From positions 15,588 to 79,587 of the forward strand of contig PABI01000032.1 in NCBI GenBank assembly GCA_002699125.1: a stretch of DNA of 64,000 nucleotides. Direction: 5' to 3'. The notes under the pieces are model-generated. The model saw only the letters and a list, made by a program, of their open reading frames with translations, did no database searches and had not been told where the DNA came from. The DNA comes from Anaerolineaceae bacterium. Its GTDB lineage: Bacteria; Chloroflexota; Anaerolineae; Promineifilales; Promineifilaceae. This document shows positions 6,240 to 39,907 of the stretch, piece after piece. The translations under genes and the position numbers were made by a program. Each line of letters opens with the position of its first letter. The first letter of the stretch is position 1.

Positions 6240-8180
6240 GTGGATACCAGAGTAGGTACTAGGAAAAGAAAATTTGTGTGGTGGGGAACGGCCGTACTCC
6301 TACTTGCCGCTGTTTTTCGCCTGGTGCTGCTGCATGATGTGCCGCCGGGATTGTCCCAGGACGAGGTGCTGAACGCCGACATCGTGCAGTTTACTCGCGG
6401 CGGCTACCATGCGCTTTTTTTCCGCGAGGGGTATGGTCACGAGCCACTTTACCATTATTTTTCGGTGCCGTTCCAGGTGCTGCTGGGCGATAATGTGCTT
6501 TCGATACGGTTGCCGGCGGTGACGTTGGGGCTGCTGCTGGTGGCTTTGACGCTGCGCTGGGCGCGGCGCGAGTTTGGTGGGAGAACGGCCGTTCTCGCCG
6601 GAATTGGTCTAGCGGTAAGCTGGTGGCCAATTGTGTTCAGCCGCGTAGGCATCCGCCCGATTTTGGAGCCGGTGCTGCTGCTGCTGTTTGCCTGGTTTTG
6701 GCCGAAACGGCCGTATCTTGCTGGCCTGTTTTTGGGCTTGAGTTTATACAGCTACACTGGGGCCAGAGTGGTCTTTGCGATTCCAGTGCTCTTGGCAATT
6801 TATTTGTTATTCACGCAAAGGCGCAAGGAGGTAGAGAAGAGAAAGCCGGTAAGAGGAGCGCTGATTGTCTTGGCTGTGTCGTTACTGGTGGCGCTGCCGT
6901 TGTTTTTGACGCTGTGGGCGGACCCGACTTTGCAGCAGCGGGTGGATCAGTTGGCCGGGCCGCTGGAAGCGTTGCAGGCCGGCGACCCGCAGCCGATTAT
7001 GCAGAGCGTGGTAGATACCGTTGGTATTTTCAGCTTTACAGGGGATCCGCGCTGGACGTATACGCTGCCCAATAGGCCATTATTTGATTGGGGTACGGCC
7101 GTTTTCTTTTACGTCGGTTTGCTGCTGGCATTTTGGCGCTGGCGCCAGCCGCACTACGCCTTTGTGCTCATCTGGCTGGGCGTCACGCTGATTCCCAGTG
7201 CGGTCACGCCGCAGTCACCCAGTACGGTGCGGCTGGTGGGGGCGCTGCCGGTGGTTTATTTAATGGTGGGATTGGGAATTACGGCCGTTTACCATTCCCT
7301 GTCTACAATGAAAGCATTTGCCAATCAACAAAAAGCTGTTTACCTTCTGTTTACGCTGCTGCTTGTGGCATTGTTGGGTGTGAATTTGTACCGAACCATC
7401 AATGACGGTTTCATTCGTTGGCCCCAGGCCGAGACGACCCGTCTAAAGCATTATCAAACAGTTTTGCTGGATATCGCGCGCGATTGGCGGGCTCATTCCA
7501 CGGAGAATCTGGTCGTGGCCGAAGCTTTTTATGAGCCCATTGATCGTGATTCCTTGATTCGGAATTTGGGCAGCGACCCACAAGCACGGTGGGTGCAGAC
7601 GGGGCCCGAGGTGGCCGGCGCGGTGGTATTGCCTGGCGGGGGAGACGGCCGTTTCTACGTACCGGAATTTGCTTCAGTGCATCCCTCTTTACTGGCAGCC
7701 GCCGGTATCTCAACAGAGCCTCTTTTTCGCACTGAATCGCAGCCATCTTTTGCTGTTTATCACTTGCCGGTTGAACGGCCGCTTCCCGCAGTGCCGTTTG
7801 AGGCCTCGATCTCCTTTGAAAGCCGGATCAAATTAGAAGGGTATGAGCTTTTGTCGCCGGAAACCGGGGCGTTTCGCCATCTATTGACCTTTTGGCAGGT
7901 AGAAGATGCGCTGCCAGCTGACCTGAGAATTTTCATTCATGCTGTGGATGAAACAGGCAGTTTGGTGGCTCAGCATGATGGATTTGATGCGGCACCGGAG
8001 GAATTGCGGTCAGGAGATATCGTGATTCAGCATCACGTACTTGATTTGCCCGAGACGGTGGGTTCTCTGGAGTTGCAGGTTGGTCTATATACGCTTCATA
8101 ATCAGCAGCGGCTGCTGCCAGTTGGTTTTCAGAGGGATATCGTTGTTTTAACGCAGATGGTGCCCGTTGACGGAAAATAA
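6240..8180 (+). CDS. GT-C fold membrane glycosyltransferase (GT39/ArnT-like) with shared C-terminal domain
   Basis: 646-aa polytopic ORF with loop motif PPGLSQDEVLNA typical of ArnT/PMT-type enzymes. Shared C-terminal domain at 7809-8177. GTG start assumed. Confidence 0.8.
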   Translation: MDTRVGTRKRKFVWWGTAVLLLAAVFRLVLLHDVPPGLSQDEVLNADIVQFTRGGYHALFFREGYGHEPLYHYFSVPFQVLLGDNVLSIRLPAVTLGLLLVALTLRWARREFGGRTAVLAGIGLAVSWWPIVFSRVGIRPILEPVLLLLFAWFWPKRPYLAGLFLGLSLYSYTGARVVFAIPVLLAIYLLFTQRRKEVEKRKPVRGALIVLAVSLLVALPLFLTLWADPTLQQRVDQLAGPLEALQAGDPQPIMQSVVDTVGIFSFTGDPRWTYTLPNRPLFDWGTAVFFYVGLLLAFWRWRQPHYAFVLIWLGVTLIPSAVTPQSPSTVRLVGALPVVYLMVGLGITAVYHSLSTMKAFANQQKAVYLLFTLLLVALLGVNLYRTINDGFIRWPQAETTRLKHYQTVLLDIARDWRAHSTENLVVAEAFYEPIDRDSLIRNLGSDPQARWVQTGPEVAGAVVLPGGGDGRFYVPEFASVHPSLLAAAGISTEPLFRTESQPSFAVYHLPVERPLPAVPFEASISFESRIKLEGYELLSPETGAFRHLLTFWQVEDALPADLRIFIHAVDETGSLVAQHDGFDAAPEELRSGDIVIQHHVLDLPETVGSLELQVGLYTLHNQQRLLPVGFQRDIVVLTQMVPVDGK

Positions 8181-8230
8181 AGCTGTAGGTATATTTGCTT
8201 TTCATATTTTAAAAGGATTTGGAGGAAAAA

Positions 8231-9832
8231 ATGGAGTCAACAGAAAGGGAAATTAGTACGTCCAAAGGACGTTTCAAAATATTACTGACATTCATCGTAG
8301 CCATCGCTGGCTTGTTTGTATTGATTCAAACCCTGGCTATTTCAATGACGAGTGGGACAACGCCGACCTATGCGCAAGGCCCCGTTATTACCCCTACTTT
8401 AACCACAGAAGAAAAAATTCAAGAATACATTGAGGCTCATACGATTCAAGGGGACGTAATGCCAGAGGCTACCCCCGAGGCAAGTGAGGCCGTGGAAGAA
8501 CCCCAAGGTGTTGCTGACCTGGATGTTGCCTGGAGCGGCAACACGAGTATGGTCGGTAATCCCGGGACGACGGTTACCTATATGCTCACCTTGTCTAATG
8601 TGGGCAGTGAAGATGACACCTACGATATTACGGAAGCCTCTGGGTGGGCAATCTCGCTATCCGGTACATCCTTTCCAGTTACCGGCGGCTCCTCCACGCC
8701 CGTGAGTGTGACGATTACAGTGCCTCCTGCCGCGATGATTAGTGATTCGGATACGGCCGTTATCACTGCCACCTCCCAAACGGATGGAATGGTAAGTGCC
8801 GTCATAACATTAACGACAACGGCCGGTTCTGAAGTCCTGTATATGCCGATAATGTTCAAAGCCCTTCTGGCTCCAACCCTATCAGCTACCCGTCCGAACA
8901 GCGCCAATGATTGGCAAATGAACTGGACCGATAGCAACATGAATAAAACAGGATTTGAGCTGCAGCAATCCACAGACTCAACATTTGCCAGCAATGTAAC
9001 AACTTACAATTTGGCCAGCAATGTTTCTTCCCAACTGATTAACAACATCGAACCCTCCGCAAGCAACGTTTACTATTATCGTTTGCGCACCCTGGGTGAT
9101 GGCCAATCTAGTCCCTGGTCTCAGGTTGTTGCGGTTGCCGGTGCTTACTACGATGAATTTACCAGCAATCAAACAGGCTGGTCTGGTCCTAACACCTTGA
9201 AAGAAGGTATGCGACGTTTGACCTACATTGAAAAGGTGGACGCCTGGTATGAAAACAGCGACTGGTTGATTATTCGTGTGGAAGATTCTTGGGATTGGGC
9301 CATCGCCAGTCCTATGCTGCCCGCGCCAGAACCGCCCTATGTTATTGAATTTCGCTCAAAACCGGCCAATTTGGGTAACCTGGTTTCTCATGGGTTTGTC
9401 TTTGGTGGCGATTGGACCGGCGCACCTTGTCCAGATTGGAGTACCATCTTAGGCGTTTATGCCCACAAGAACTGCTTTAACCATTTCTACAATTCCAATC
9501 TCATCTGGTCTTCTGACACAGACTTGACCCTGTTGTGGGAACGCGTGGACAATCTGGTTTATTGCCCCAGCTGTGGCGGCAGCCCGTTGAAGCGGCTGGG
9601 TGATGCGTCGATTGTTTTACCTTTCCATCCCAATGCATCTGACTGGAATAGGTATCGTATAGAGGTGCGTGAATCAGATATTAAGTTCTTTATGAACGGC
9701 GATCTTCGCCTGACATATAATGACACGCGCTGGATTGACGATCCTTACTTTGGTGTGTTTGCTTCCACGGATGAATACAGTAACTCTACCTGGCGCTTTG
9801 ACTATATTCGGATAACACCTCTGGATAATTAG
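8231..9832 (+). CDS. Membrane-anchored extracytoplasmic protein (beta-sandwich modules plus ConA/LamG-like C-terminal domain)
   Basis: ATG at 8231 is preceded by GGAGGA (8221-8226). TM anchor ILLTFIVAIAGLFVLIQTLAI. CARDB/NEW3-like (TVTYMLTLSNVGSEDDTYDI) and FN3-like (YYYRLRTLGDGQSSPWS) segments. The C-terminal NRYRIEVRESDIKFFMNGDL resembles DUF1080/LamG-type jelly rolls. Domain calls are from memory. Confidence 0.7.
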   Translation: MESTEREISTSKGRFKILLTFIVAIAGLFVLIQTLAISMTSGTTPTYAQGPVITPTLTTEEKIQEYIEAHTIQGDVMPEATPEASEAVEEPQGVADLDVAWSGNTSMVGNPGTTVTYMLTLSNVGSEDDTYDITEASGWAISLSGTSFPVTGGSSTPVSVTITVPPAAMISDSDTAVITATSQTDGMVSAVITLTTTAGSEVLYMPIMFKALLAPTLSATRPNSANDWQMNWTDSNMNKTGFELQQSTDSTFASNVTTYNLASNVSSQLINNIEPSASNVYYYRLRTLGDGQSSPWSQVVAVAGAYYDEFTSNQTGWSGPNTLKEGMRRLTYIEKVDAWYENSDWLIIRVEDSWDWAIASPMLPAPEPPYVIEFRSKPANLGNLVSHGFVFGGDWTGAPCPDWSTILGVYAHKNCFNHFYNSNLIWSSDTDLTLLWERVDNLVYCPSCGGSPLKRLGDASIVLPFHPNASDWNRYRIEVRESDIKFFMNGDLRLTYNDTRWIDDPYFGVFASTDEYSNSTWRFDYIRITPLDN

Positions 9833-9858
9833 TCAGGTGCGTTTTCGAACGCCTTAAA

Positions 9859-9901
9859 AGCCTCGGAGGAATATCAACTATTCCTCCGAGGCTTTATTAT
9901 T
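9859..9901 (+). terminator. Rho-independent terminator
   Basis: Perfect 15-bp stem AGCCTCGGAGGAATA (9859-9873) / TATTCCTCCGAGGCT (9879-9893), 5-nt loop, then TTATTATT. Confidence 0.8.
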
Positions 9902-9907
9902 AGCAAG

Positions 9908-12301
9908 ATGCGTAAAGAAGGGATTCAAGCCATTGGGTCTGAGTGGAGGCGTTTGGGGTGGCTTTTGCTCATTTTTTTGTCGTTTTTTGGCCTCGCAATA
10001 TCCAATCTTTCCCAACTATCACCAACATTTGATGAACAAGGTTTTATTACCAGAGGCCTGGGCTATCTGCGTGGTGAAAACCAGCATATGCGCGTGGGCC
10101 ATCCCCTGGGCCTAAACGGGTTGAATGCGGCTTTGCTGGTGGGAGATGATACGGTGCAGCTGCCTACATCGGACCCCTCCTGGCAGCTGTCCAGTTTTCA
10201 TCGCCCTTCTGAACTGTTTTTATGGGAAATTGGCAATGACGTTGCGCACGTCATGTTTCTGGCTCGGCTGCCGACCATCTGGCTGGGGCTGCTGCTGGTG
10301 GCGCTGGTGGGCCGGTGGGCCTGGGAATTGACCCAACGAAGCTGGGCGGCTCTGCTGGCAATGGTATTAGCAGCCTTTGATCCCAATTTGCTGGCCAACG
10401 GCCGTCTGGCTACCACCGATTTTGGATTAACTTTTTTTGCTTTTTTGGCTGGCTTTTTGCTGTGGCGTTTTGGTAAACGGCCGTCCTGGCCACGTGCCAT
10501 TTGGGCTGGTGTTGGCTTTGGCCTGCTGCAAAACACAAAATTTACCGCCGGTCTGTTTGTTCCACTTTTCGCGCTGGTTCTTCTTTTGTTTGTCGTTAGC
10601 TGGTATCGACAATCAACGCTGAAACCGCCACTTTTTAGTTGGAACTCGCCGCTGGTTATACTGGTGGTTGCCTTTCCGCTGGCTGCTTTTTTGACCTTGT
10701 GGGCTGCCTATGGTTTCCAGGTTGGTACCTTGCCCGACGGTTTGCCCACCATGCCGCAGCTGGCCGGACTCACCGTGCCGCTGTCGCACCATTTGGAGCA
10801 GCTGCTGGACATTGGCGGGCGGCTGCAAAAAAGCACGCCCGCGTTTCTGATGGGCAGTTATTCTGACAGCGGTTGGTGGTATTATTTCCCGGTTGCCTTT
10901 GTGCTCAAGACGCCGCTGCCCACCCTGATTTTGCTGTTGGGAACCGGAGGGGGGCTGCTGTGGTTAGGCGTTCGTCAATGGCTGGCTGGCCGCAGGCTGA
11001 GTTTAGCCGCATTGTTGATTCCGCCATTGGGTTACTTTGGCTTTGCCCTGACGACCGATATTAATTTAGGCTACCGACATCTGTTGCCGGTGCTGCCTTT
11101 TTTCTTTGTGCTTATCGCGGTAGTCTTGTTTTGGCTGAGTGGGGAAACGGCCGTTTCAACAAGCTCACTATGGGCTCTTTGGCAGCGTTACCAACAAATC
11201 GCGCTTGTGGGTTTGGTAGGTTGGCTGGCCGTGATCGCCTTTTGGCTGCACCCGCACTATCTGGCATTTTTTAACGTCTTCGCCGGCGGGCCGGACGGTG
11301 GCTGGCGCTATCTGGTCGACAGCAACCTGGATTGGGGTCAGGATTTGGGCGGCTTAAAAAACTGGATGGATGAAAATGGTGTCGAGCAGGTGTGGTTGAG
11401 TTATTTTGGTGAAGGACGGCCGTCTTATTATAACATCAACCACATCGGCCTGGACAGTTTTCCACCCCGGCTGATGAATCCACAGGCACGGCCGTTTTAT
11501 CCCCTTGACCCTGCACCCGGCATCTACGCCATCAGCGCCACGACGTTGCAGGGGGTTCATTTTGCTGACCACGACACGTTTGTCTGGTTTCGCCATAAGG
11601 AGCCACTGGACAAGGTAGGCTACAGCATTTTTTTGTACGAGGTGCCACCCTATGGCGAACCTACCGATGTGGTGCTGGCAGGTTTGCAGCTAGATGAGAT
11701 CGCCCCGGAAGATTTTGCCCGGTTCCAAACCAACCAGGTGACGCCGCGCTGGGTGAATGCCGATAGCGCATTTTTTCAGCCTGCCGCAGCTGAGTTCTGG
11801 TTGGCCGAGCGTGAAGGTTTTGAAATGGAGTGGATGGAGACGGCCGTTTCCCGCCAGCCCATCACCGAAAATGAACAATATTCCCTCTACCGCGTGCAAA
11901 GCAACAGCCAAACGGTCGTAGCCAGCCACCAATTTAGCCTGGCCGAACACCGAATTGAACTGCTGGACCAGCCGCCCACCGTTTTGCTTCAAGATGACAT
12001 TTTGCAGTTAACCACTCGCTGGCGCAATGAAACTGGTCCGGTTCCACTGAAAATCTACGTTCATCTGCTGGACGAATCAGGCCAAATCGCTGCCCAGTGG
12101 GATGGCCTGGATGTGGCTTGGGAGGGTTGGCGTGCCGGGGACATTTTGTGGCAACAGCACGCCATCGCGCTGCGGCCCGAGCTGCCCGCCGGGCCCTACG
12201 ACCTGCGCGTTGGATTGTATGATCCAGCAGCAGGCACCCGCTGGCAAACGGCTGACGGTGCCGATTTTGCCTACCTTACAACTGTGGAGGTGGCCCCGTG
12301 A
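9908..12301 (+). CDS. GT-C fold membrane glycosyltransferase (ArnT/PMT-like) with shared C-terminal domain
   Basis: 797-aa polytopic ORF with first-loop FDEQGF motif. Paralogous to 4323-6077. Shared C-terminal domain at 11933-12298. Confidence 0.85.
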   Translation: MRKEGIQAIGSEWRRLGWLLLIFLSFFGLAISNLSQLSPTFDEQGFITRGLGYLRGENQHMRVGHPLGLNGLNAALLVGDDTVQLPTSDPSWQLSSFHRPSELFLWEIGNDVAHVMFLARLPTIWLGLLLVALVGRWAWELTQRSWAALLAMVLAAFDPNLLANGRLATTDFGLTFFAFLAGFLLWRFGKRPSWPRAIWAGVGFGLLQNTKFTAGLFVPLFALVLLLFVVSWYRQSTLKPPLFSWNSPLVILVVAFPLAAFLTLWAAYGFQVGTLPDGLPTMPQLAGLTVPLSHHLEQLLDIGGRLQKSTPAFLMGSYSDSGWWYYFPVAFVLKTPLPTLILLLGTGGGLLWLGVRQWLAGRRLSLAALLIPPLGYFGFALTTDINLGYRHLLPVLPFFFVLIAVVLFWLSGETAVSTSSLWALWQRYQQIALVGLVGWLAVIAFWLHPHYLAFFNVFAGGPDGGWRYLVDSNLDWGQDLGGLKNWMDENGVEQVWLSYFGEGRPSYYNINHIGLDSFPPRLMNPQARPFYPLDPAPGIYAISATTLQGVHFADHDTFVWFRHKEPLDKVGYSIFLYEVPPYGEPTDVVLAGLQLDEIAPEDFARFQTNQVTPRWVNADSAFFQPAAAEFWLAEREGFEMEWMETAVSRQPITENEQYSLYRVQSNSQTVVASHQFSLAEHRIELLDQPPTVLLQDDILQLTTRWRNETGPVPLKIYVHLLDESGQIAAQWDGLDVAWEGWRAGDILWQQHAIALRPELPAGPYDLRVGLYDPAAGTRWQTADGADFAYLTTVEVAP

Positions 12302-16265: not shown

Positions 16266-16268
16266 AAA

Positions 16269-16299
16269 AATCTGCGTTAATCTGCGAAATCTGCGGATT
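16269..16299. repeat. AATCTGCG word repeat, three direct copies (period 9-10)
   Basis: aatctgcg at 16269-16276, 16279-16286 and 16288-16295. It fills the gap between convergent genes and encodes the last codons (SADFAD) and the stop of the minus-strand gene. Confidence 0.85.
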
Positions 16300-18205: not shown

Positions 18206-18317
18206 AGCAGTTAAAAGCCGAGCTTGTCCCGACAAAGCTCGGCCTGGGGAATGTTACCATATTTTGTCGTCAATTTGGCATAGGCATGATACAGTCGCCA
18301 CCCGAATCGGGAATTGT

Positions 18318-27878: not shown

Positions 27879-27924
27879 CGTGATGCCTGAAATGTGATTT
27901 TCTCACGCATCACGTTTTACGTTT
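27879..27924 (+). terminator. Rho-independent terminator
   Basis: Stem CGTGATGC (27879-27886) / GCATCACG (27907-27914), followed by TTTTACGTTT. It overlaps the upstream GTG start proposed by the ORF track for the next gene. Confidence 0.5.
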
Positions 27925-27935
27925 CAAGAACCCCC

Positions 27936-30096: not shown

Positions 30097-30108
30097 GTGT
30101 GCGTGAAG

Positions 30109-31842: not shown

Positions 31843-33086
31843 TTTTACGCATCAGATCGCTTCTCACCTCTGCCGATGCCCGCGATGGCGTGGTAATGAC
31901 GGCCGCAACCGTCTTGGCCGGTGGCTTTGATTACCTGGTGCTGGTTGTGGCCGGACTGTTATTGTCTGATCCGGCAGCGATTGCCTTTTTGGCGGTGATG
32001 AACCTGCTCAAAATTGCCGAGCAGGTGACCTGGGTGATTCGCAACGTGGTGGCTTATTACACGGCCGAATTGGCGGTTCAGGCCGATGCCCCAAGGCAAA
32101 TTGGCCAATTTGTGCGCCGCCGCTGGCGCTGGGCTTGGCGCTGGGGGTTGCTGGTGGCGCTGCTGTTTGGTCTGGCGGCCCCGTTGACCAATCGCCTCAT
32201 CAATGCCAATTCCACCGGCGCGGTGATGGCTGCCGGGCTGGCCTTACTCTTCTTTTTTGTGCGCCCGGTCACAGATGGCGCGCTGCAAGGGGTGCAAAAC
32301 TTTTTGGGGCTGGGCAGCGTGGTGGTGCTTCAGGCGGTGCTGCGTTTTGGACTGACGGCCGTTCTCATCTGGGCCGGTTTAGAATTGGTTGGCGCGGTTC
32401 TGGCGCTGCCGCTGGCCAGTGGCCTGGCGCTGCTGCTGGCCCTGTGGCTGCTGCGCGACTATTTTCGTGTCCCGGCACAATCGGCGAAATCCAAAATTAG
32501 TTTTAGCTATTCGGCGCTGACGTTTGTGGGTCTGTTGGCCTTTGCCGTCCTGGTTTACAGTGATGCCATTTTGGTGAATCGACTTTTCCCCGAAGCGGTA
32601 GCCGCGCAGTACACGCCGGTTAATGTGTTGGCCCGGATCAACCTGTTTGTGCCGGTGGCACTGGGCATGGTACTGTTTCCCAAAGCGACGCAGCGCCAGA
32701 CGCTGGGGCAGGATGCCCGGCCGATGCTGCTGCTGGCGCTGGCGGCGACGCTGTTGCCGGGGTTGGGGTTAACGGCCGTTTACTTCCTGGCTCCAGAATG
32801 GATTGTGACGCTCGTTTTTCGCGGCCAATACGGGAATCCGGGACTGCTGCTGGGCTGGGTTGGCCTGGCCACAACCTTGTTTGCCGGGGTGAATATCTGG
32901 CTCAACTATGCACTGTCGCTGGGAAGACGGCCGTTTGTCTACTTGCTGGCGGTCATCGCCGTCGCCCAAATTTGCGCGGTACTGCTGCTGGACCACACGC
33001 TGATGACCATTGCTTTTGTGCTGATCGGGTCTGGTCTGGCAGCCAATCTGGCGGGGGCAGCCCTGTTATTAAGCAATAAGAATTGA
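31839..33086 (+). CDS. Wzx/MOP-superfamily-like polysaccharide or lipid-linked-oligosaccharide flippase
   Basis: 415-aa ORF with ~12 hydrophobic segments and an ATGA overlap with the upstream gene. The pattern is that of polysaccharide biosynthesis (flippase) proteins. Family call is from topology and context. Confidence 0.65.
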   Translation: MILRIRSLLTSADARDGVVMTAATVLAGGFDYLVLVVAGLLLSDPAAIAFLAVMNLLKIAEQVTWVIRNVVAYYTAELAVQADAPRQIGQFVRRRWRWAWRWGLLVALLFGLAAPLTNRLINANSTGAVMAAGLALLFFFVRPVTDGALQGVQNFLGLGSVVVLQAVLRFGLTAVLIWAGLELVGAVLALPLASGLALLLALWLLRDYFRVPAQSAKSKISFSYSALTFVGLLAFAVLVYSDAILVNRLFPEAVAAQYTPVNVLARINLFVPVALGMVLFPKATQRQTLGQDARPMLLLALAATLLPGLGLTAVYFLAPEWIVTLVFRGQYGNPGLLLGWVGLATTLFAGVNIWLNYALSLGRRPFVYLLAVIAVAQICAVLLLDHTLMTIAFVLIGSGLAANLAGAALLLSNKN

Positions 33087-33165
33087 TCCGCAGATAACGC
33101 AGATAACGCAGATTTCTGCCTTTAATCTGCGTCAATCTGCGGATTATTTCCACATCGCAGATTAA
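33087..33165. repeat. CGCAGAT / ATCTGCG word-repeat cluster forming a composite hairpin
   Basis: cgcagata at 33089-33096, acgcagata at 33097-33105 and acgcagatt at 33106-33114. Inverted aatctgcg follows at 33124-33131 and 33134-33141, plus cgcagatt at 33157-33164. It lies immediately after the flippase stop (33084-33086). Confidence 0.85.
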
Positions 33166-33240
33166 TCGTGGCTGAGGCGGTGCGATGTAGTTGGTTCACT
33201 GACGGTACAGTCGGTATACTTGCCCTCTTGTTTAAACGAA

Positions 33241-33307
33241 AAGGTGCGACGCACTTTTATGGGCACTGTTTGTTGAACTTAGCTCAATAACAAGTGCGTC
33301 GCACCTC
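33241..33307 (+). promoter_or_regulatory. 5' leader hairpin upstream of the GT2 gene
   Basis: AAGGTGCGACGCACTT (33241-33256) pairs with AAGTGCGTCGCACCT (33292-33306). This gives a 15-bp stem and 35-nt loop, ending 16 nt before the GTG start at 33323. No T-run follows. Confidence 0.4.
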
Positions 33308-33322
33308 TTGGAATGAATATTT

Positions 33323-34204
33323 GTGATCGATTGTTCAATTGGCATCACCGCTTATAACGAAGCGGCCAACATCGGTAACTTGTTACAGCGAATTCTGGAT
33401 CAGCGCCTGGAAACGGTAGCGATTCAGGAGATCATTGTGGTGGCCAGCGGCTGCACCGACAGCACCGAAGCGATTGTGCGGGAATTTGCGGCGCGAGACG
33501 GCCGTATCCGCCTCCTCGTCCAACCTAAACGCGAAGGCAAAGCGTCGGCCATGAACCTGTTTATCCGCGAGGCGGCTAACGAGGTGATGATTTTATGCAG
33601 CGCCGACTTGCAGCCGGATGCCAAGGCCGTTGAGCAGCTCATTGCGCCTTTTGCCGACCCGGAAGTGGGCATGTCCGGCTGCCATCCCGTGCCGGTTAAC
33701 GACCCGGAAACATTCATGGGGTTTGCCGTGCATTTACAGTGGAACCTGCATCATGCCCTGAATATGTCTGGCGGTTTTAAGGGGGGCGAGATGGTGGGTT
33801 TTCGTCGCCTGTTTGCGCGCATTCCGTACCATACGGCCGTTGATGAAGCCAGCGTTGAACCAATCGTGCGTGGGCAGGGGTACAAAGTGCAGTACTGTCC
33901 TGAGGCTATTGTGTATAACAAGGGACCGGAAACCGTGGCCGACTTTTTACGCCAGCGGCGGCGCATTTACGCCGGGCACCTGGACCTGGCCAATTTGCTG
34001 GGCTACAAAGTGAGTACGATGTCTGGTGGTAATATTGCCGGGCTTTTGCTCAAAAATCTGGATTGGCGGCCCAAGCAGTTGATCTGGACGGTGGCGGTGA
34101 TTGGGTTGGAGATTTACGGCCGTTTCCTGGGCAAGCGCGACTTCAAAAACCGCAAAAATCACACCATCTGGGAAATCGCCACAACGACCAAAGAGCTTTC
34201 ATGA
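33323..34204 (+). CDS. Family 2 glycosyltransferase
   Basis: SIGITAYNEAANIGNLL and IIVVASGCTDST motifs. A C-terminal hydrophobic segment is present. GTG start. Confidence 0.8.
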   Translation: MIDCSIGITAYNEAANIGNLLQRILDQRLETVAIQEIIVVASGCTDSTEAIVREFAARDGRIRLLVQPKREGKASAMNLFIREAANEVMILCSADLQPDAKAVEQLIAPFADPEVGMSGCHPVPVNDPETFMGFAVHLQWNLHHALNMSGGFKGGEMVGFRRLFARIPYHTAVDEASVEPIVRGQGYKVQYCPEAIVYNKGPETVADFLRQRRRIYAGHLDLANLLGYKVSTMSGGNIAGLLLKNLDWRPKQLIWTVAVIGLEIYGRFLGKRDFKNRKNHTIWEIATTTKELS

Positions 34205-35307
34205 AATCAATGCTCGGCGTGCTCACACGCATCCCTTTATTTAAACTGTATCGGCGGTTTGGCTGGCCTCAAATGCTGCCGCTCAATATTACGCTCTCCC
34301 CATCGCCCAAGTGCAACTCCCGCTGCCTTACCTGTAACATCTGGATGAAGCGGGAAAACGAACTCGACCTGGATGAATGGGACAAAGTGCTGGCCTCGCT
34401 GGGCAAAGCGCCGTACTGGTTTACCATCAGCGGCGGTGAACCGCTCATGTTTCCCCACATTGTGGAGCTGACCAAGCTGGCTTACAAACATTGCCGGCCG
34501 GGCATCATCAACATCCCCACCAACGGCATTCTCAAAAGTGGCCCGGAGCGCGTGCGCGAGATTCTGGAATATTGCACTGACTCCCAGCTCATCATCAACC
34601 TGTCGCTGGATGGTGTGGGCGAAAAGCACGACTTCATTCGCGGCGTGGCGGGTAATTTTGAGAAGTTTGAGGAGCGGCTGGAGCAATACCTGGCGCTGCG
34701 TGACGAGTTTCCTAACCTGGCGGTGGGGATTCACTCGGTGGTTTCCGTGTTCAGCGTGGGACATCTGGATGAACTGATCACTTACGCCGAAAATTCCCGG
34801 GCCGACCAGTTCATCACCGAGATTGCTGAGCCGCGCGTAGAGCTGGACACAGTGGGCCTGCCCATTACTCCCAGCCCGGAACAATATGCCGAGGCCATCG
34901 ACAAGCTGATTGCCTACGTCAACAGCAAGCAGTACAAAGGCGTGGCCAAAATTACCGAAGCGTTCCGCGTGGAATATTACAAGCTGGTGAAGCGCATTTT
35001 AGACGAGCAGGACCAGGTGATTGGTTGTTATGCCGGCTGGGCCAGCGCCCAAATTTACGCCGACGGCACCGTTTGGCCCTGCTGCGTCCGTGCCGACGAT
35101 TTAGGCAACCTGCGCGAGCATAACTACGATTTTAAGGAAATCTGGTTTGGCGAAAAAATCAAAGAAGTGCGCCGCTCCATTTACGAGAAGGAATGCCACT
35201 GCCCGTTGGCCAACGCCAGCTACACCAACATGTTGATGGACGTGCCCACGGCCAGCCGAGTGGCAGCCAAAGTGATTTCGCCAAGCTCTATTGAGGTACG
35301 GCCGTAA
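34201..35307 (+). CDS. Radical SAM / SPASM-domain enzyme
   Basis: ATG at 34201 overlaps the upstream stop (ATGA). CX3CX2C motif in SPSPKCNSRCLTCNIW. GGEPLMF SAM-binding motif. The C-terminal Cys cluster (CYAGW...WPCCVRADDLGNL...CHCPLAN) fits a SPASM/twitch domain. Confidence 0.85.
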   Translation: MKSMLGVLTRIPLFKLYRRFGWPQMLPLNITLSPSPKCNSRCLTCNIWMKRENELDLDEWDKVLASLGKAPYWFTISGGEPLMFPHIVELTKLAYKHCRPGIINIPTNGILKSGPERVREILEYCTDSQLIINLSLDGVGEKHDFIRGVAGNFEKFEERLEQYLALRDEFPNLAVGIHSVVSVFSVGHLDELITYAENSRADQFITEIAEPRVELDTVGLPITPSPEQYAEAIDKLIAYVNSKQYKGVAKITEAFRVEYYKLVKRILDEQDQVIGCYAGWASAQIYADGTVWPCCVRADDLGNLREHNYDFKEIWFGEKIKEVRRSIYEKECHCPLANASYTNMLMDVPTASRVAAKVISPSSIEVRP

Positions 35308-35327
35308 AAAGCAATGGGACACACATG

Positions 35328-35359
35328 AACGCAGACTTTTTTCTCTGCGTCTCTGCGTT
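35328..35359 (+). repeat. TCTGCG-word hairpin after the radical SAM gene
   Basis: AACGCAGA (35328-35335) pairs with TCTGCGT (35344-35350) or TCTGCGTT (35352-35359). Same word family as 16269-16299 and 33087-33165. Confidence 0.6.
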
Positions 35360-35373
35360 AAAAGGGTTTCACG

Positions 35374-35658
35374 ATGTCATTTGAGTGGCTCAATAAATTT
35401 CACAAAGATATGGAAAAACCGGCTGACTATGCTGAAAAGACGCTGGCACAGTATCGGCTGGGGATGAAGGCCAAGGGCTCCATTGCTGGCGTGGCTATTT
35501 TGATCGATGAGGATGGCTGCGAGGCGTGCCGTGCCCTGCCCGCTGATGCGGTCTACCATCCCGACGAAGCGCCGCATTTGCCACTACCAGAATGCAGTAA
35601 AGGTCGCCACTGCCGCTGTGTTTATCGGCCCGTGATGACTTACCAGGTTGAAGAATGA
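35374..35658 (+). CDS. Small Cys-rich hypothetical protein (94 aa)
   Basis: ATG start. C-terminal half carries CEAC...C...HCRC (GCEACRALPADAVYHPDEAPHLPLPECSKGRHCRCVY), a plausible zinc-binding arrangement. No family assigned. Confidence 0.5.
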   Translation: MSFEWLNKFHKDMEKPADYAEKTLAQYRLGMKAKGSIAGVAILIDEDGCEACRALPADAVYHPDEAPHLPLPECSKGRHCRCVYRPVMTYQVEE

Positions 35659-35752
35659 AAACCGTGGTTAGGTGGAGCCTAAGCTTGCCCAAGGCAGAAC
35701 CGGGCTTCGACAAGCGCAGCCCTCGTTTAGGTTGTAAAAATTCTGTCGATTT

Positions 35753-36727
35753 ATGAATGTAACAGTTACAGGTGCAACGGGATTTGTGGGTGGGGCGCTG
35801 GTGCGTGCTTTACTGGCTGAGGGGCATAAGGTGGTGGGCGTGAAACGGCCGTCTTCCACTCAACCAACCTCACAGCACCCATCCTTCACCTGGGTCAACG
35901 GCGATGTGACCGATCCAACTAGTTTGCACGGCCTCTTTGACGGCGCGGATTGGCTTATTCACGCCGCCGGCATGTTGGGGCAGGCAGGCGTGCCGGAGCA
36001 AGCTTACTTTGCATTGCACGAACAGGGCACGAACAATGTCCTGGCCGAGGCCGAAAAGACAAATGTGGGCCGTATTTTGTACATTAGCAGTCCCGGCGTG
36101 CTGGGGCCAATCAGTGGGCCGCCGGCCGATGAAACCGCGCCGCTGGCTCCCAGCAATCCGTACGAGCGCAGCAAAGCAGCGGCCGAGCAGGTGGCGCAAG
36201 TGTACGCCAGTGCCGGCCTACCGGTGGTCATCGCCCGGCCGGAATTTATTTATGGTCCGACTGATTTGCACGTGTTGGGGCTGTTTAAGGCGGTGCGCGA
36301 CGGCCGTTTCTTCACCATCAACGGCGGGCAGAACCATTGCCACCCAACCTACATTGATGATGCGGTGTCTGGGATGCTGCTGGCTTTGGTGAACGGTCGT
36401 CCTGGCGAAATTTACCACATCACCGGGCCGGAGCCGGTAACGTTTCGCGAGCTGGGGCAGACGATTGCGGCTGCGCTGGATGTGCCGCCGCCGGGCTTGA
36501 ACCTGCCGCGTTGGTTGGCCTGGCTGGGGGCAACGGGATTGGAGCTGGGAATGGGTTTGTTAAATAAGGAGCCCCCGCTCAGCCGCACCGGCGTCGCCTT
36601 TTTTAGCGAAGACCGCCGCTTTTCCTGGCAGAAAGCACATGAAGAACTGGGCTACACGCCCCAATGTGACCTGCCACGCGGCGTAGCCGAAACGGTGGCC
36701 TGGTATCGGGCAAACGGGTTGGTGTGA
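35753..36727 (+). CDS. NAD-dependent epimerase/dehydratase (SDR family)
   Basis: VTGATGFVGGALV (GxxGxxG) and YERSKAAAE (YxxxK) motifs. Confidence 0.9.
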   Translation: MNVTVTGATGFVGGALVRALLAEGHKVVGVKRPSSTQPTSQHPSFTWVNGDVTDPTSLHGLFDGADWLIHAAGMLGQAGVPEQAYFALHEQGTNNVLAEAEKTNVGRILYISSPGVLGPISGPPADETAPLAPSNPYERSKAAAEQVAQVYASAGLPVVIARPEFIYGPTDLHVLGLFKAVRDGRFFTINGGQNHCHPTYIDDAVSGMLLALVNGRPGEIYHITGPEPVTFRELGQTIAAALDVPPPGLNLPRWLAWLGATGLELGMGLLNKEPPLSRTGVAFFSEDRRFSWQKAHEELGYTPQCDLPRGVAETVAWYRANGLV

Positions 36728-36730
36728 ACA

Positions 36731-37525
36731 ATGCTGAAATCACTTTCCATCAAATCTTTATATGTGCTGGCACTGGCCGAAGGCGAGGGCGTGGGCACGG
36801 CGTATGAATATTTTGCCAAGCGACTGGTGTTGGCGCGCTGGCTGAAAAATCGGCAAGCGCAAGAGCGCAAGCCGCAGCGGCTGCTCATTGCCGGGCTGCC
36901 GGAGAAGTACGGCAGTAGCCTGGACTTTTTGCAGCTGGCGCAGGAGTTGGACGTCGAAGTTACCGTAGCGGATGAACGGCCGTCTGCCTTACAAAAGCTG
37001 CAAAATTCGTTGGCGACGGCGCAGGCGGAAGGGTGGTTAACGGCCGTATCCCCACAACTCATTTCTTTAACCCACCTGGCCGATTTAAGCCCAATCGACG
37101 AGCCGTTTGACTTGTGCCTGGGATCCGAAGGATTGCAGCGGTTAGACGCCGACCACCGGCCGGATTACGTGCGGCATGTGCAGCGATTGGCGTCCAGTGC
37201 GGCCCTGTTTGTCCCCAACGGTGACAACATGGCTCACACCAACATCAGCGGGCTGGCTGGCGTGACGCTGGCCGAGATGCAGCAGTTGCTGGGTAATGCC
37301 AAAACGGGTTACATCGACATGCCGCCCTTCCCGCCGGGCATCACCCGCAGCGACGAGCAGCGCGAGCAGGCGACCAGCGGCACGATGGAAGCAATGGCCA
37401 TGTGGGGATTGGGTTACTATGCGCGATTGGAACATTTTTTGCCAACGGCCGTGCGGCGCAAGCAGTCCCACATTGTTTACGCCCTGATGAATTTAGATAA
37501 AGAATTGGACACTGATAAACATTGA
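36731..37525 (+). CDS. Hypothetical protein, possibly Rossmann/methyltransferase-like
   Basis: 264-aa ORF starting 4 nt after the epimerase stop. LLIAGLPEKYGSSLD and DLCLGSEGLQRL weakly recall class I methyltransferase motifs. Low-confidence functional call. Confidence 0.55.
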   Translation: MLKSLSIKSLYVLALAEGEGVGTAYEYFAKRLVLARWLKNRQAQERKPQRLLIAGLPEKYGSSLDFLQLAQELDVEVTVADERPSALQKLQNSLATAQAEGWLTAVSPQLISLTHLADLSPIDEPFDLCLGSEGLQRLDADHRPDYVRHVQRLASSAALFVPNGDNMAHTNISGLAGVTLAEMQQLLGNAKTGYIDMPPFPPGITRSDEQREQATSGTMEAMAMWGLGYYARLEHFLPTAVRRKQSHIVYALMNLDKELDTDKH

Positions 37526-37574
37526 TTTTCACAGATTTGGACGAAAAATCAGTGGTTATCTGTGTTTATCAGTG
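37510..37574. repeat. Nested inverted word repeats (CACTGATA / CACAGAT ... ATCTGTG / TATCAGTG)
   Basis: cactgata at 37510-37517 and cacagat at 37530-37536 are mirrored by atctgtg at 37558-37564 and tatcagtg at 37567-37574. The cluster spans the stop of 36731-37525. Confidence 0.6.
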
Positions 37575-37606
37575 TCCTATTTAGAGACAAACAACGAAAC
37601 GCATTC

Positions 37607-39907
37607 ATGATGACTCAGATAAAAAACAGATTGCAGCGCATTGACCCCGGCTATTGGGTCGTTTTGGCGATCTGCCTGCTGGCGGTGTGGCCGTTTATTG
37701 GCCGGGCCAGCCTGCCGCAGCAGACGGATGCGGAGCTGCATATTTTTCGCCTGGCAGAGCTGAGCTTTTTGGTGCGCGGCGGCGAATTTTATCCACGATG
37801 GGCCCCCAACTTTTATCACGGTTACGGCTACCCTATCTTCAACTACTACGCGCCCTTGAGTTATTATGTTGGCCTGGTTTTTGAGCTGCTGCCTGGCCTG
37901 GATGCGGTGGCCGGGGTGAAGGCAGTGTTTGTACTGGGGCTGTTGGGAGCCGGATTCGGGATGTATGGGTTTGTGCGCGACAACTGGGGACGGCCGTCTG
38001 GCTATCTGGCGGCAGCAGTGTATGTGTATGCCCCGTATGTGCAGTATGTGGACCCCGTCGCCCGCGGTGCGCTGGCCGAAGCGTTTAGCCTGGGCGTGTT
38101 TCCGCTGGCGCTGTGGGCGTTGGACCGCTTGCGGCGGCAGCCAACCTGGGGGCGCTGGGTGACGGCCGTTCTCCTCATCGTTGCCGTTATTTTAAGCCAC
38201 AACCTGATGGCCCTGCTCTTTTTTGGCCTGTTGGCAGCCTGGGTGCTTTGGCAAACCATCGTCCGTCAGGCGGATACTGCTGGACTGCGCTGGCTGTGGG
38301 CGGCGTTGGGGCTGGGGTTGGGAATGGCCGCCTTCTTCTGGCTGCCCGTTTTACTGGAGCGCAACGCCGTTAATCTGGATACGCTAATTGGTGCCGGGGA
38401 CAATTACGACTTCCGTACCCACTTTTTAAGCTGGGGCGAGATGCTGGCCGCCACGCTGCGCCTCGATTGGGGCGCAACGGAGCCGGTGTTCCGTTTTAAT
38501 TTGGGGCTGGCCCAGTGGATTTTAGGCGGCGCGGGACTCATTTTATTGCTGCTGCGGCGTGTAAAGCAGGCCAGGCAGGTGCTGTTTTTTGCGTTGGCAA
38601 CGGCCGTTCTCGTTTTTATGCTGCTGCCCGCCTCTACCTTTTTGTGGGAGGCGACGCCTTTTTTGCCTTTTTTCCAATTCCCCTGGCGGCTGCTGGGCGG
38701 CACGGTAGCCATGCTGGCCGTTCTGGCTGGTGCCGGGGTAAAGGCTGTGCAGACAAATTGGCCTAAGCTGCGGGGATGGGGCACGGTTACGGCCGTTACC
38801 TTTTGTCTCCTTACCGCGCTGCCTCTCACCCAACCGGCACCCTGGCCTGACTTCGGCGATGTGTTCCCCTTGCGCATGTCGCTCATCGAAAATTCCGGGC
38901 GCTGGCTGGGAACCACCTCCACCGCCGACTACGTCCCGGCAACGGTGGACATCATTCCCGAGCGCAAAGGCAGCGTAGTGGTGGGCTTTATCAATGAGGA
39001 ACCGCTGGATCGCGTGAACCGGGCGACGCTGCCCGGCGGTGCGGAGGTAATCCATGAAGAGGTAAGCCCGCTCCATTTGCGCTTTAACGTGAACTCGCCA
39101 GAAAAATTCCTGCTGCGCCTTTTCCTTTTCCAGTTTCCGGGTTGGACGGTGACTGTAGACGGCGCGCTGGTGAAGCCAGAATTGGCCCGCCCGGAAGGCT
39201 TCATGGCCATCCCGGTGCCCGCCGGTGAGCACATGGTGGATGTACAGTTCCGCGATACGCCGCCGCGCCAGATTGCCTGGGCGATAACGGCCGTTTCTCT
39301 TTTGCTTATGGCGGTAGGCGGCTGGCGCTTGCGCCAAAATGAGGGCAAATTTAGCCTGCCGGACCAACTGACGATGACCGACTGGCGCGTTTTAGGGGCG
39401 GCGCTGCTGGTTTCGGCCATCACGCTGCTGATTCTTGGCCCATTGCAGCTGCTTCATTACAATTCCACCGGCTACGTGGCGGAACCGGCACAGGTCGATC
39501 GCCTGGATGATTTTGGTGGCCAGATTGCTTTGATTGGTTTTGATGCGTCGGCAGAAACGGCCGTGCCCGGTGAGCAGGTGACCGTGACCCTGTACTGGCA
39601 GGCTCAAACCAGCATGGCCATTAATTTCCAAAGCTTTGTGCACCTGCTGCGGCCCGATGGCTCATTGGCGGCACAGTCAGACCACCTGAATCCGGGCGAA
39701 TTTCCCACCCGCCGCTGGCCGCTTGACAAATATGTGCGTGATGTCCACATCCTACAACTGCCGCCTGATTTGCCCCCCGGCGAATACCAGCTCACGGCTG
39801 GACTATGGGTGCAAACCGAGGGCTGGCGCTTGCCGCTGCTGGATGCCAACGGCAATCAGGTAGATGATAAGGCAGCACTTTTTACTTTGACAGTCGTCGA
39901 TGACTGA
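37607..39907 (+). CDS. PTPS-related-family GT-C-like membrane protein with shared C-terminal domain
   Basis: Start moved to ATG 37607. ELHIFRLAELSFLVRGGEFYPRWAPNFYHGYGYPIFNYYAPLSYY matches my memory of the '6-pyruvoyl-tetrahydropterin synthase-related' membrane protein family. Shared C-terminal domain at 39506-39904. Confidence 0.8.
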   Translation: MMTQIKNRLQRIDPGYWVVLAICLLAVWPFIGRASLPQQTDAELHIFRLAELSFLVRGGEFYPRWAPNFYHGYGYPIFNYYAPLSYYVGLVFELLPGLDAVAGVKAVFVLGLLGAGFGMYGFVRDNWGRPSGYLAAAVYVYAPYVQYVDPVARGALAEAFSLGVFPLALWALDRLRRQPTWGRWVTAVLLIVAVILSHNLMALLFFGLLAAWVLWQTIVRQADTAGLRWLWAALGLGLGMAAFFWLPVLLERNAVNLDTLIGAGDNYDFRTHFLSWGEMLAATLRLDWGATEPVFRFNLGLAQWILGGAGLILLLLRRVKQARQVLFFALATAVLVFMLLPASTFLWEATPFLPFFQFPWRLLGGTVAMLAVLAGAGVKAVQTNWPKLRGWGTVTAVTFCLLTALPLTQPAPWPDFGDVFPLRMSLIENSGRWLGTTSTADYVPATVDIIPERKGSVVVGFINEEPLDRVNRATLPGGAEVIHEEVSPLHLRFNVNSPEKFLLRLFLFQFPGWTVTVDGALVKPELARPEGFMAIPVPAGEHMVDVQFRDTPPRQIAWAITAVSLLLMAVGGWRLRQNEGKFSLPDQLTMTDWRVLGAALLVSAITLLILGPLQLLHYNSTGYVAEPAQVDRLDDFGGQIALIGFDASAETAVPGEQVTVTLYWQAQTSMAINFQSFVHLLRPDGSLAAQSDHLNPGEFPTRRWPLDKYVRDVHILQLPPDLPPGEYQLTAGLWVQTEGWRLPLLDANGNQVDDKAALFTLTVVDD

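Follow-up and report, generated by a model that had tools for sequence, protein, structure and literature searches.

Eight membrane proteins encoded in the window, a 64,000-nucleotide stretch of Anaerolineaceae DNA, carry one homologous C-terminal module of ~125 amino acids. The module is abundant, has no name and was met here only in Chloroflexota. Structure prediction indicates an uncharacterised, Cys-free beta-sandwich of Ig-like or CBM-like type. Our leading interpretation, to which we give a probability of roughly 45%, is that this is an extracytoplasmic glycan-binding unit that tethers the acceptor or the product.

Eight copies in the window and the wider family

Each module forms the final ~120 to 135 amino acids of a long ORF (Table 1). 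When the last 150 amino acids of the carriers are compared by pairwise BLASTP, all 28 tail pairs are significant, with best E-values per pair of 1.6e-6 to 9.2e-25 and identities of 27 to 45% over 69 to 131 amino acids. Tail A matches the other copies at E 1.6e-6 to 6e-16, and tail B is the most divergent of the eight. A tail HMM searched against the window's six-frame translation, 913 stop-to-stop ORFs in all, retrieves the eight carriers at E 1e-46 to 4.5e-57 and no ninth copy; since the next-ranking ORF reaches only E 0.28, the window contains exactly eight. The original prediction of eight C-terminal segments with a recurring pattern is thus borne out by alignment and HMM, with significant similarity throughout. 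The pattern itself agrees with the consensus of the window copies (L.GY ... LYWQA ... FVHLLD ... AQ.D ... PT..W..GE ... LP..LPPG.Y.L..GLY), and 665 non-redundant instances of the wider family also fit it.

Table 1. Module copies, their carriers and other genes of the island, in window positions
Feature	Position	Strand	ORF or description	Evidence
Tail A	7809..8177	+	ORF 6240-8180, PMT_2-type GT-C	HMM envelope 7749-8171, E 2.7e-47
Tail B	11933..12298	+	ORF 9908-12301, PMT/PMT_2 GT-C	HMM envelope 11882-12298, E 1.8e-46
Tail C	14017..14364	+	ORF 12298-14367, GT-C-like	HMM envelope 13948-14346, E 1.3e-47
Tail D	15882..16262	+	ORF 14364-16265, GT-C by predicted fold	HMM envelope 15852-16259, E 1.5e-56
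Tail E	16280..16687	-	ORF 16277-18235, ~13 TM	HMM envelope 16310-16729, E 8.1e-57
Tail F	22811..23194	+	ORF 20969-23197, PMT_2 GT-C	HMM envelope 22766-23188, E 1.2e-53
Tail G	31447..31839	+	ORF 30097/30109-31842, 3-TM protein	HMM envelope 31420-31836, E 9.6e-52
Tail H	39506..39904	+	ORF 37562-39907, PTPS_related/YfhO-type GT-C	HMM envelope 39491-39901, E 4.4e-54
Glycan-assembly island	4323..42262		12 GT-C-type genes and G	Pfam scans
B paralogue	4323-6077		No tail	36% identity to B, 573 amino acids
H paralogues	18171-21053, 39986-42262		No tail	
GT2+GtrA fusion	24722-27004		In island	Pfam scan
Two further GT2 genes	27080-27865, 33323-34204		In island	Pfam scan
Tail-less PMT_2 GT-C (F paralogue)	28618..30096	+	Stop codon abuts G start	PMT_2 35.4 bits
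Polysacc_synt flippase-like gene	31839-33086		In island	Pfam scan
Methyltransferase, radical-SAM/SPASM gene, epimerase			Also in island	Pfam scans

The family comprises 29,382 clusters at 50% identity, and all 119 verified genome matches are to Chloroflexota. The module is found at the very C-terminal end of proteins from at least seven GT-C families, in one to four tandem copies each; 46 of the 119 8-kb genome loci have two to four carriers. Among 61 random genome ORFs, the Pfam scaffolds are PMT_2 (33), PMT (12), DUF2142 (6), TMEM260-like (4), PTPS_related (3), DUF2079 (2) and YfhO (1).

Across the 665 non-redundant copies, conservation reaches 97% for both Trp residues and 83 to 87% for D, P, P, Y and G. 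A polar signature is also present (D 84%, Q 74%, R 73%, H 68%). Single or terminal copies retain F-x-H, Q-x-D, D and R in at least 91% of cases and inner array copies in 35 to 69%, a contrast that is partly biased because the loci were located by the pattern WQ-x11-FVHLLD. In D, the candidate-site residues are W533, H548, Q559, D561, W574, D582 and R610.

Scaffolds, topology and gene context

The scaffolds had been described as otherwise different. This stands at the family level, where the N-terminal parts form seven groups unrelated by BLAST ({A,C}, B, D, E, F, G and H; A and C are 30% identical over 377 amino acids), but most belong to a single GT-C superfamily: seven of the eight carriers are GT-C-type or GT-C-like. 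Pfam GT-C families score above threshold in A (PMT_2, 33.9 bits; cutoff 26.1), B (PMT, 48.5 bits), F (PMT_2, 64.1 bits) and H (PTPS_related, 38.4 bits; YfhO, 28.1 bits). Carriers C and E are merely GT-C-like, because their PMT_2 scores (20.1 and 17.3 bits) are under the cutoff. Full-length D was modelled by AF2 (pLDDT 92.6, pTM 0.90), and Foldseek matches the model to ArnT at E 1.1e-8 and also to STT3, ALG9, AftB, AftA and PglB; the predicted fold confirms D as a GT-C scaffold. Some orthologues of D are named 'arabinofuranosyltransferase' by JGI. The DUF2142-like scaffold of the original prediction is found on carriers in other genomes and matches no carrier in the window.

Acidic motifs, taken straight from the translations, occur in the first extracytoplasmic loop after TM1 of A (SQDEV), B (TFDEQ), C (YHDEA), D (PLDDAW), F (SPDEVD) and H (QTDAEL); none was clearly seen in the translations of E or G. 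Residues D44 and D45 of carrier D are invariant among 62 orthologues.

In the solved GT-C enzymes PglB, ArnT, EmbC and AftD, the C-terminal soluble domain is extracytoplasmic. Carrier D is predicted to be N-in with 11 TM segments and a 271-amino-acid C-terminal region outside, and G to be N-in with three, consistent with its earlier description as a protein with few TM segments. K and R residues are more numerous before the last TM segment than after it in six of the eight carriers. From these features we infer an extracytoplasmic module, as had been expected.

Each fusion of tail and scaffold is old and co-inherited with the scaffold. The two parts diverge at similar rates, and tails of orthologues are as conserved as the catalytic part: the orthologue of C in L044 has 56% identity in the scaffold and 54% in the tail, and that of E in L074 has 40% and 46%. 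Spread by domain shuffling, as originally proposed, can be upheld in deep time but not as a recent process, because each fusion was inherited along with its scaffold; the window tails, too, have diverged to the identities given above.

The gene content of the island fits extracytoplasmic glycan assembly. The source is a marine Anaerolineae sugar-polymer gene island. Within it, protein G has no Pfam or NCBIfam match outside its tail and no GT-C signal. The G family is kept across Anaerolineae at 40 to 100% identity, and a gene for a tail-less PMT_2 GT-C always precedes the G gene. The conserved cassette, in the order PMT_2 (~495 amino acids), G homologue (~600 amino acids) and Polysacc_synt-like gene, recurs in L123 (44% identity) and in the Ardenticatenaceae genome L124 (57%). 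We propose the product of the tail-less gene next to G as the partner that receives the module from G in trans.

Predicted fold and closest known systems

The isolated tail of D (residues 499-633) is modelled by AF2 as an eight-strand beta-sandwich with pLDDT 96 and pTM 0.89. This solo fold, the variable copy number per protein, and the presence or absence of the module among island paralogues support the suggestion that it is an autonomous domain. The tails are acidic and Cys-free, and the C-terminal regions of the carriers contain at most one Cys.

No family in Pfam-A (24,736 models) or NCBIfam r20 covers the tails of the eight proteins, and ten long representatives gave only sub-threshold Ig-like Pfam echoes. 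A tail profile searched against all PDB sequences retrieved nothing at E 10 or better. The module thus has no named family in these searches, in line with the original prediction. Solved structures resemble the D tail model weakly in Foldseek (TM 0.44 to 0.59, E 2e-4 or worse). The nearest are the O-antigen-binding domain of Wzt, NPC2/ML and GbpA, and GH2 Ig-like and plain Ig-like domains are also among the matches. The comparison with CBM and Ig-like folds that had been suggested yields matches that all stay at TM below 0.6.

Wzt-C (Wzt_C, PF14524) gives the top TM among solved structures (0.54 to 0.59 for 6o14, 8dky, 2r5o, 8dl0 and 7k2t). Like the tail, it is a similar-sized beta-sandwich that forms the very C-terminus of a membrane-associated protein of glycan assembly. 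The two share their general fold, which is insufficient for family membership: rmsd values are 3.9 to 7.2 A and identities 9 to 13%. Echoes of Wzt_C in Pfam searches are sub-threshold in 7 of 79 tails (best E 0.0016; one genome ORF reaches 1.2e-4), and the eight full-length window proteins have no Wzt_C match at E 0.1 or better. Wzt-C is cytoplasmic and resides on the ATPase of an O-antigen ABC transporter, whereas the tail is on GT-C proteins, probably outside, and often in tandem.

Mycobacterial GT-C arabinosyltransferases also have C-terminal carbohydrate-binding modules, namely the EmbC CTD (PMC3044687) and the AftD CBMs (bioRxiv 10.1101/2019.12.22.885152). As predicted for the tail carriers, a GT-C membrane enzyme is joined to an extracytoplasmic beta-sandwich, which binds sugar in EmbC and AftD, and as proposed for the island, a gene cluster with many GT-Cs builds an envelope polysaccharide. 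However, EmbC and AftD have no detectable sequence similarity to the tail among all PDB chains searched, and the tail is a single promiscuous family found on at least seven GT-C families, with all verified matches in Chloroflexota. EmbC was also rejected as a structural relative: neither its CTD nor the AftD CBMs are among the best 50 matches in the Foldseek listing for the module, so the analogy originally drawn with the EmbC module finds no support in the fold within that listing.

DUF4832 (PF16116) is the commonest weak Pfam echo (10 of 79 tails; E 2.5e-7 in one genome ORF), with alignments covering the C-terminal ~100 model positions, but it is below threshold in all eight window tails. 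A DUF4832 protein in BFVD matches the tail at TM 0.56 and rmsd 3.6, and DUF4832 and WztC-like proteins recur among the BFVD matches. DUF4832 is an uncharacterised domain that occurs in proteins resembling glycoside hydrolases and in Pel-associated ones; PMC7112168 names it solely as an accessory gene. Because it has no assigned function itself, it offers no functional transfer to the tail.

Possible functions of the module

GT-C glycosyltransferases use polyprenyl-phosphate sugars. If the module tethers glycans, the GT2+GtrA enzymes of the island would make lipid-linked sugars that are flipped to the outer face of the membrane, where the dozen GT-C enzymes would add sugars stepwise to a glycan or glycoprotein of the cell envelope. 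Through a putative site of two near-invariant Trp residues with His, Gln, Asp, Asp and Arg, the shared tail would bind a feature common to the polymer and so prevent each enzyme from leaving its acceptor or product, as the CBMs of EmbC and AftD or the C-terminal domain of Wzt do. Extra tandem copies, which are typical of CBMs, might add reach or avidity, and G could furnish the module to its tail-less GT-C neighbour. The ruler role suggested originally is likewise hypothetical. The carbohydrate-binding Wzt fold, the sub-threshold Pfam echoes, the GT-C carriers, the predicted outside location, the tandem copies, the polar and aromatic signature, the G cassette and the gene content of the island all tentatively favour this interpretation. 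Against it, the weak fold matches equally include lipid-binding ML/NPC2 and plain Ig-like domains, and the Pfam echoes of the window copies are all under curated thresholds.

The putative site is conserved across paralogues expected to differ in acceptor. A common ligand would explain this, and a structural polar network or a metal site would do so equally well. The same signature on such different enzymes could also be explained if the module were a protein-protein docking unit by which GT-Cs attach to one another or to a shared scaffold protein of the envelope, forming an extracytoplasmic assembly line without glycan binding. Ig-like sandwiches often mediate protein-protein contacts. As many as eight carrier genes lie close together in the island, 46 of the 119 genome loci likewise hold two to four, and a role for G as a separate subunit supplying the module to a tail-less GT-C would imply such contacts. 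We nevertheless consider docking unlikely, since pairwise contact does not require that one enzyme carry as many as four tandem copies, and the closest folds are sandwiches that bind ligands, not Ig domains of the adhesion type.

In the full-length model of D, no low-pLDDT linker precedes the module, and pLDDT is >90 over the junction. The module therefore seems rigidly packed into the periplasmic domain, which could mean a structural role: a cap that stabilises or shields the GT-C periplasmic domain in a monoderm envelope, helping it to fold or to resist proteases. In that case the conserved polar residues would make up a network buried in the domain or bind a structural Ca2+, with Q-x-D, D and H as possible metal ligands. 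The acidic, Cys-free composition of the tails is compatible with such a cap, as is the fact that paralogues work without the module. Its presence on a separate protein in the conserved G cassette, its multiplication to three or four copies and the conservation of orthologue tails at the level of the catalytic part are all unexpected for a cap, and we regard this explanation as doubtful.

Handling of the polyprenyl-phosphate carrier by an ML/NPC2-like lipid-binding domain, for donor presentation or product release, is very improbable: NPC2, MD-1, GM2 activator and RhoGDI match at TM 0.40 to 0.48 and 9 of 79 tails have sub-threshold Pfam ML matches, but none reaches threshold (16.0 bits for the D tail, cutoff 22.7), conservation falls on polar or aromatic residues instead of on the lining of an aliphatic cavity, the GT-C lipid carrier is already bound inside the membrane domain (ArnT, PglB, Emb), and both the tandem arrays and the placement at the C-terminus speak for a site away from the membrane. 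The ML domain (PF02221; NPC2, MD-1/MD-2, GM2 activator) is, like the tail, an Ig-like beta-sandwich of ~130 amino acids. It differs in that ML domains are disulfide-bonded and serve lipid transfer, whereas the tail has no cysteines and occurs in a glycosyltransferase context.

A C-terminal domain shared by eight proteins

Eight proteins of the window (A to H) end in a common module of about 125 amino acids, here called the tail. All 28 pairwise BLASTP comparisons of their last ~150 amino acids are significant, with best E-values per pair of 1.6e-6 to 9.2e-25 and 27-45% identity across 69-131 residues. An HMM of the tail, searched against the 913 six-frame ORFs of the window, recovers A to H with E-values between 1e-46 and 4.5e-57, against E 0.28 for the best other ORF, and the window therefore holds exactly eight copies. 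The original prediction of eight homologous tails, each at the end of its protein, is thus upheld at its coordinates, and the recurring motif that it described agrees with the tail consensus.

Coordinates of the tail-carrying proteins and of the gene cassette that includes G
Feature	Location	Coordinates	Strand	Tail
A	ORF in window	6240-8180	+	C-terminal end
B	ORF in window	9908-12301	+	C-terminal end
C	ORF in window	12298-14367	+	C-terminal end
D	ORF in window	14364-16265	+	C-terminal end
E	ORF in window	16277-18235	minus	C-terminal end
F	ORF in window	20969-23197	+	C-terminal end
G	ORF in window	30097-31842	+	C-terminal end
H	ORF in window	37562-39907	+	C-terminal end
Cassette	window	24722-33086		
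Cassette	L123	4661-13107		
Cassette	L124	8484-13114		

Modelled by itself (AF2, 79-sequence alignment), the tail of D (residues 499-633) folds into a beta-sandwich of eight strands and a single short helical turn at pLDDT 96 and pTM 0.89, in keeping with the autonomous domain that had been proposed. The tail had not been assigned to a named family, and indeed none of the Pfam-A and NCBIfam models matches it in the eight window proteins, nor does any Pfam model cover it in 10 long database representatives. The tail profile matches no PDB sequence at E 10 or better. Foldseek comparison of the model with the PDB gives weak matches only (E 2e-4 or worse, TM 0.44-0.59), to a GbpA domain, the Wzt O-antigen carbohydrate-binding domain, NPC2/MD-1/GM2-activator (ML fold), ApaG, RhoGDI and GH2 Ig-like domains. 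Sub-threshold Pfam echoes recur among 79 tails scanned one by one (DUF4832 in 10, ML in 9, Wzt_C in 7), and among genome ORFs one shows DUF4832 at E 2.5e-7 and another Wzt_C at E 1.2e-4. Nothing in the BFVD viral folds matches at E 0.001 or better; weaker matches again include a DUF4832 protein at TM 0.56 and one that is WztC-like. Given these weak fold matches and recurring echoes, the tail belongs, as a divergent member, among the Ig-like/CBM-like sandwiches and lies outside every curated family. Its nearest kin may be Wzt_C and DUF4832. The EmbC-type CBM, to which the tail had been likened, is not supported as a structural relative, and membership was rejected, since the profile matches no PDB sequence and no such module is among the 50 best Foldseek matches listed. 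Literature searches for a Chloroflexota GT-C tail domain and for DUF4832 function found nothing relevant.

Across 665 non-redundant copies, the conserved signature is L-x-G-Y ... T-L-Y-W ... Y-x-V-F-V-H-L-x-D-x-x-G ... A-Q-x-D-x-x-P ... P-T-x-x-W-x-x-G ... D ... P-x-G-x-Y-x-L-x-x-G-L-Y ... R-L, with its two Trp residues at 97% each. F-x-H, Q-x-D, D and R stand at 91% or more in single and terminal copies, whereas inner tandem copies keep the Trp residues and framework and have these residues in 35-69%, a comparison that is biased by ascertainment of genome loci with the FVHLLD pattern and that agrees in qualitative terms with a consensus drawn from unbiased representatives. Relatives with two to four tandem copies (proteins P0081-P0230 and loci L003-L122) show the full F-x-H / Q-x-D / R signature only in the last copy, and their inner copies are degenerate.

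A HMMER search, exhaustive over 1.84 billion representatives (clusters at 50% identity), puts the tail family at 29,382 proteins with E of 0.001 or better; 20,557 of these reach 1e-10 or better and 5,374 reach 1e-30 or better. Top matches are ~1000-aa proteins with three to four tandem copies at the C-terminus and with PMT_2, TMEM260-like or PTPS_related N-termini. We also searched genomes, one for each GTDB species, with a DNA pattern that encodes W-Q-x11-F-V-H-L-L-D and detects one motif variant. This yielded at least 120 loci, and an HMM confirmed the domain in 119 of those listed. All 119 are from Chloroflexota, chiefly Anaerolineae sensu lato (among them Caldilineaceae, Ardenticatenales, Promineifilaceae and Thermoflexales), and also Chloroflexia and one member of Dehalococcoidia; the single non-Chloroflexota locus among the matches listed (Phycisphaerales, L099) is a chance match without the domain. 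Because the scan covers at least 120 loci and one motif variant, it is a strong indication, not a census, that the tail is confined to Chloroflexota. The window itself lies on an 83.7-kb contig from a Tara Oceans marine metagenome, and an 'Anaerolineaceae bacterium' MAG encodes a protein with 100% identity to G.

The 119 listed loci contain 193 domain-bearing ORFs, of which 80, 85, 27 and 1 have one, two, three and four copies, respectively, and in 94% of cases the domain stops no more than 25 aa short of the end of its ORF. Complete carrier ORFs have a median length of 805 aa, and two to four carriers are present in 46 of these 8-kb loci. Pfam assigns 61 random complete carriers to PMT_2 (33), PMT (12), DUF2142 (6), TMEM260-like (4), PTPS_related (3), DUF2079 (2) and YfhO (1). 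A few short ORFs in loci L003-L122 (106-177 aa) consist of the tail domain alone, and may be fragments or stand-alone versions.

Carrier proteins and their history

The attachment of the tail to several scaffold families, also part of the original prediction, is supported by BLAST, which places the N-terminal parts in seven unrelated groups: A with C; B with 4323-6077; F with 28618-30096; H with 39986-42262 and 18171-21053; and D, E and G each alone. Pfam places A, B and F in PMT/PMT_2 (ArnT/PMT-like GT-C) and H in PTPS_related/YfhO, whereas the PMT_2 matches of C and E stay below threshold. The Pfam scan gave no match for D and G, and an NCBIfam scan of the carriers gave nothing further above threshold. 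The full-length model of D (AF2, alignment of 62 D orthologues; pLDDT 92.6, pTM 0.90) best matches ArnT (E 1.1e-8), STT3/OST, ALG9/ALG12, AftB, PglB and AftA in the PDB, and D is therefore a GT-C enzyme as judged from its predicted structure. No low-confidence linker precedes the tail in this model.

Model helices and K/R distribution give D an N-in topology with 11 TM helices, four K/R-rich cytoplasmic loops and the last 271 aa outside. G is predicted to be N-in with three TM segments, which places its tail outside as well, and K/R counts are higher before the last TM segment than after it in six of the eight carriers. The C-terminal soluble domains of established GT-C structures are extracytoplasmic. 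From these topologies, the K/R bias and the GT-C structures we infer that the tail is probably outside the cytoplasmic membrane, as had been expected. The C-terminal regions of all carriers are strongly acidic and essentially Cys-free.

The tail is present in all orthologues of D (48-93% identity) and of G (40-100% identity). When the tails of A to G are compared with a pool of 987 proteins, the top or nearly top matches belong to proteins whose scaffold matches too, at comparable identity. Between each tail and those of its orthologues, identity is 39-100%, compared with 27-45% between window tails. Because tail and scaffold match together and window tails are mutually so divergent, tail accretion must have been repeated but long ago, and each fusion has since been inherited vertically. 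The domain shuffling proposed originally is thus retained as repeated accretion in deep time; recent shuffling or gene conversion within the island, the glycan-assembly gene run at 4323-42262, was rejected, as orthologue tails are closer than island tails.

Tailed and tail-less members lie side by side in three scaffold groups of this island. The 4323-6077 product and B are PMT-type GT-C paralogues (36% identity over 573 aa) whose main difference is a ~200-aa C-terminal extension of B ending in the tail, and are a natural with/without-tail pair.

G has three predicted TM segments and no known domain, and its start codon adjoins the stop codon of the tail-less GT-C gene 28618-30096. In the window, L123 and L124, the G-family gene always directly follows a tail-less ~495-aa PMT_2 gene and precedes a Polysacc_synt-like gene, so the tail module accompanies a GT-C even on a separate polypeptide. 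GT2+GtrA, GT2 and methyltransferase genes are also upstream of the PMT_2-G pair in one relative, and the core of PMT_2, G and flippase-like genes is kept in 44%-identical and 57%-identical (Ardenticatenaceae) relatives. The cassette order is GT2+GtrA fusion, GT2, methyltransferase, tail-less PMT_2 GT-C, tailed G-family protein (~600 aa) and Polysacc_synt-like membrane protein. This looks like a self-contained three-component-type glycosylation unit with G as an unknown fourth component. The GT2+GtrA_DPMS_TM fusion (24722-27004) has a further ~370-aa C-terminal region without a Pfam match, and its architecture (744 aa) is kept in L123.

Apart from its GT-C genes and G, the island encodes the GT2+GtrA fusion, two more GT2 proteins, the methyltransferase and the Polysacc_synt flippase-like protein, along with a radical-SAM/SPASM protein and an epimerase. 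This content is consistent with extracytoplasmic glycan assembly from lipid-linked sugars. The radical-SAM/SPASM enzyme gene (34063-35307) lies among glycosyltransferase genes. Within the GT-C run, 8219-9832 encodes a 537-aa protein, predicted to be secreted or single-TM, with a Thr/Ser-rich N-terminal region and weak echoes only of Ig-like (FixG_C) and 3-keto-disaccharide-hydrolase/LamG-like domains; it may serve the island as a substrate for glycosylation or in glycan processing. Just beyond the island is a histidine kinase gene (42548-43867) with an N-terminal Effector-associated domain 7 (EAD7).

Possible roles of the tail

GT-C enzymes generally take on accessory modules for substrate binding, MIR, TPR and CBM domains among them, and a GT-C with an accessory sandwich is a known theme. 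The most likely role of the tail is that of a carbohydrate-binding accessory module that would recognise a feature common to the envelope polymer built by these GT-Cs, a reading to which we give a probability of about 0.45. The tail would tether its enzyme to acceptor or product, following the model of the EmbC/AftD CBMs and Wzt-C, which tether in their own systems, and tandem copies might add avidity or reach. Tails could instead be protein-protein docking modules that organise the GT-Cs, which we consider unlikely, and we are similarly doubtful of a purely structural cap or a metal site. An ML-like lipid binder is very improbable: the ML fold recurs among the weak matches, but membership in the ML domain was rejected on sub-threshold scores and the lack of cysteines.

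Oceans, sediments, sponges and wastewater all harbour abundant Chloroflexota, but next to nothing is known about how their multilayered envelope, which has no outer membrane, is composed and assembled; the debate has been summarised (PMC13319060). The tail might, more speculatively, be the signature module of an undescribed envelope-glycan assembly system, seen in this analysis only in Chloroflexota. One sandwich, on up to eight or more GT-Cs per genome and in trans on G, would recognise one common polymer or each other, and would organise a mycobacterial-arabinogalactan-like, extracytoplasmic, polyprenyl-phosphate-sugar-driven line for the outer layers of monoderm or 'neoderm' Chloroflexota. 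If this is true, the tail would define a new carbohydrate-binding (CBM) family. The GT-C enzymes marked by the tail are most probably those that make the Chloroflexota envelope. The family overturns no concept and has no solved relative. It stands out by being large, unannotated and, among the genomes checked, confined to Chloroflexota. Naming it would improve annotation for tens of thousands of 'hypothetical proteins' and would add a case to the general rule of accessory substrate-binding modules on GT-C enzymes, and the recombinant tail could serve as a probe, giving a handle for isolating the cognate polymer.

A highly iterated octamer

The window contains 135 copies of a palindromic octamer, ACGGCCGT, in its 64 kb, versus 1.4 expected (zero-order), or about one per 474 bp, in genes of both strands and usually in the flanked form AACGGCCGTT (example positions 14011, 15879, 16692, 22781, 31429 and 39557). 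In frame it encodes the tripeptide T-A-V ('ETAV', 'GTAV'), which recurs throughout the island proteins, and it is found just ahead of six of the eight tails. D orthologues have no T-A-V at the corresponding position, and the octamer is therefore a lineage-specific overlay. Tail similarity as an artefact of this palindrome was dismissed for the same reason, and because the homology is ~120 aa long. A literature search on the octamer found nothing relevant. ACGGCCGT resembles the HIP1-type highly iterated palindromes of cyanobacteria, although the host here is an Anaerolineae genome.
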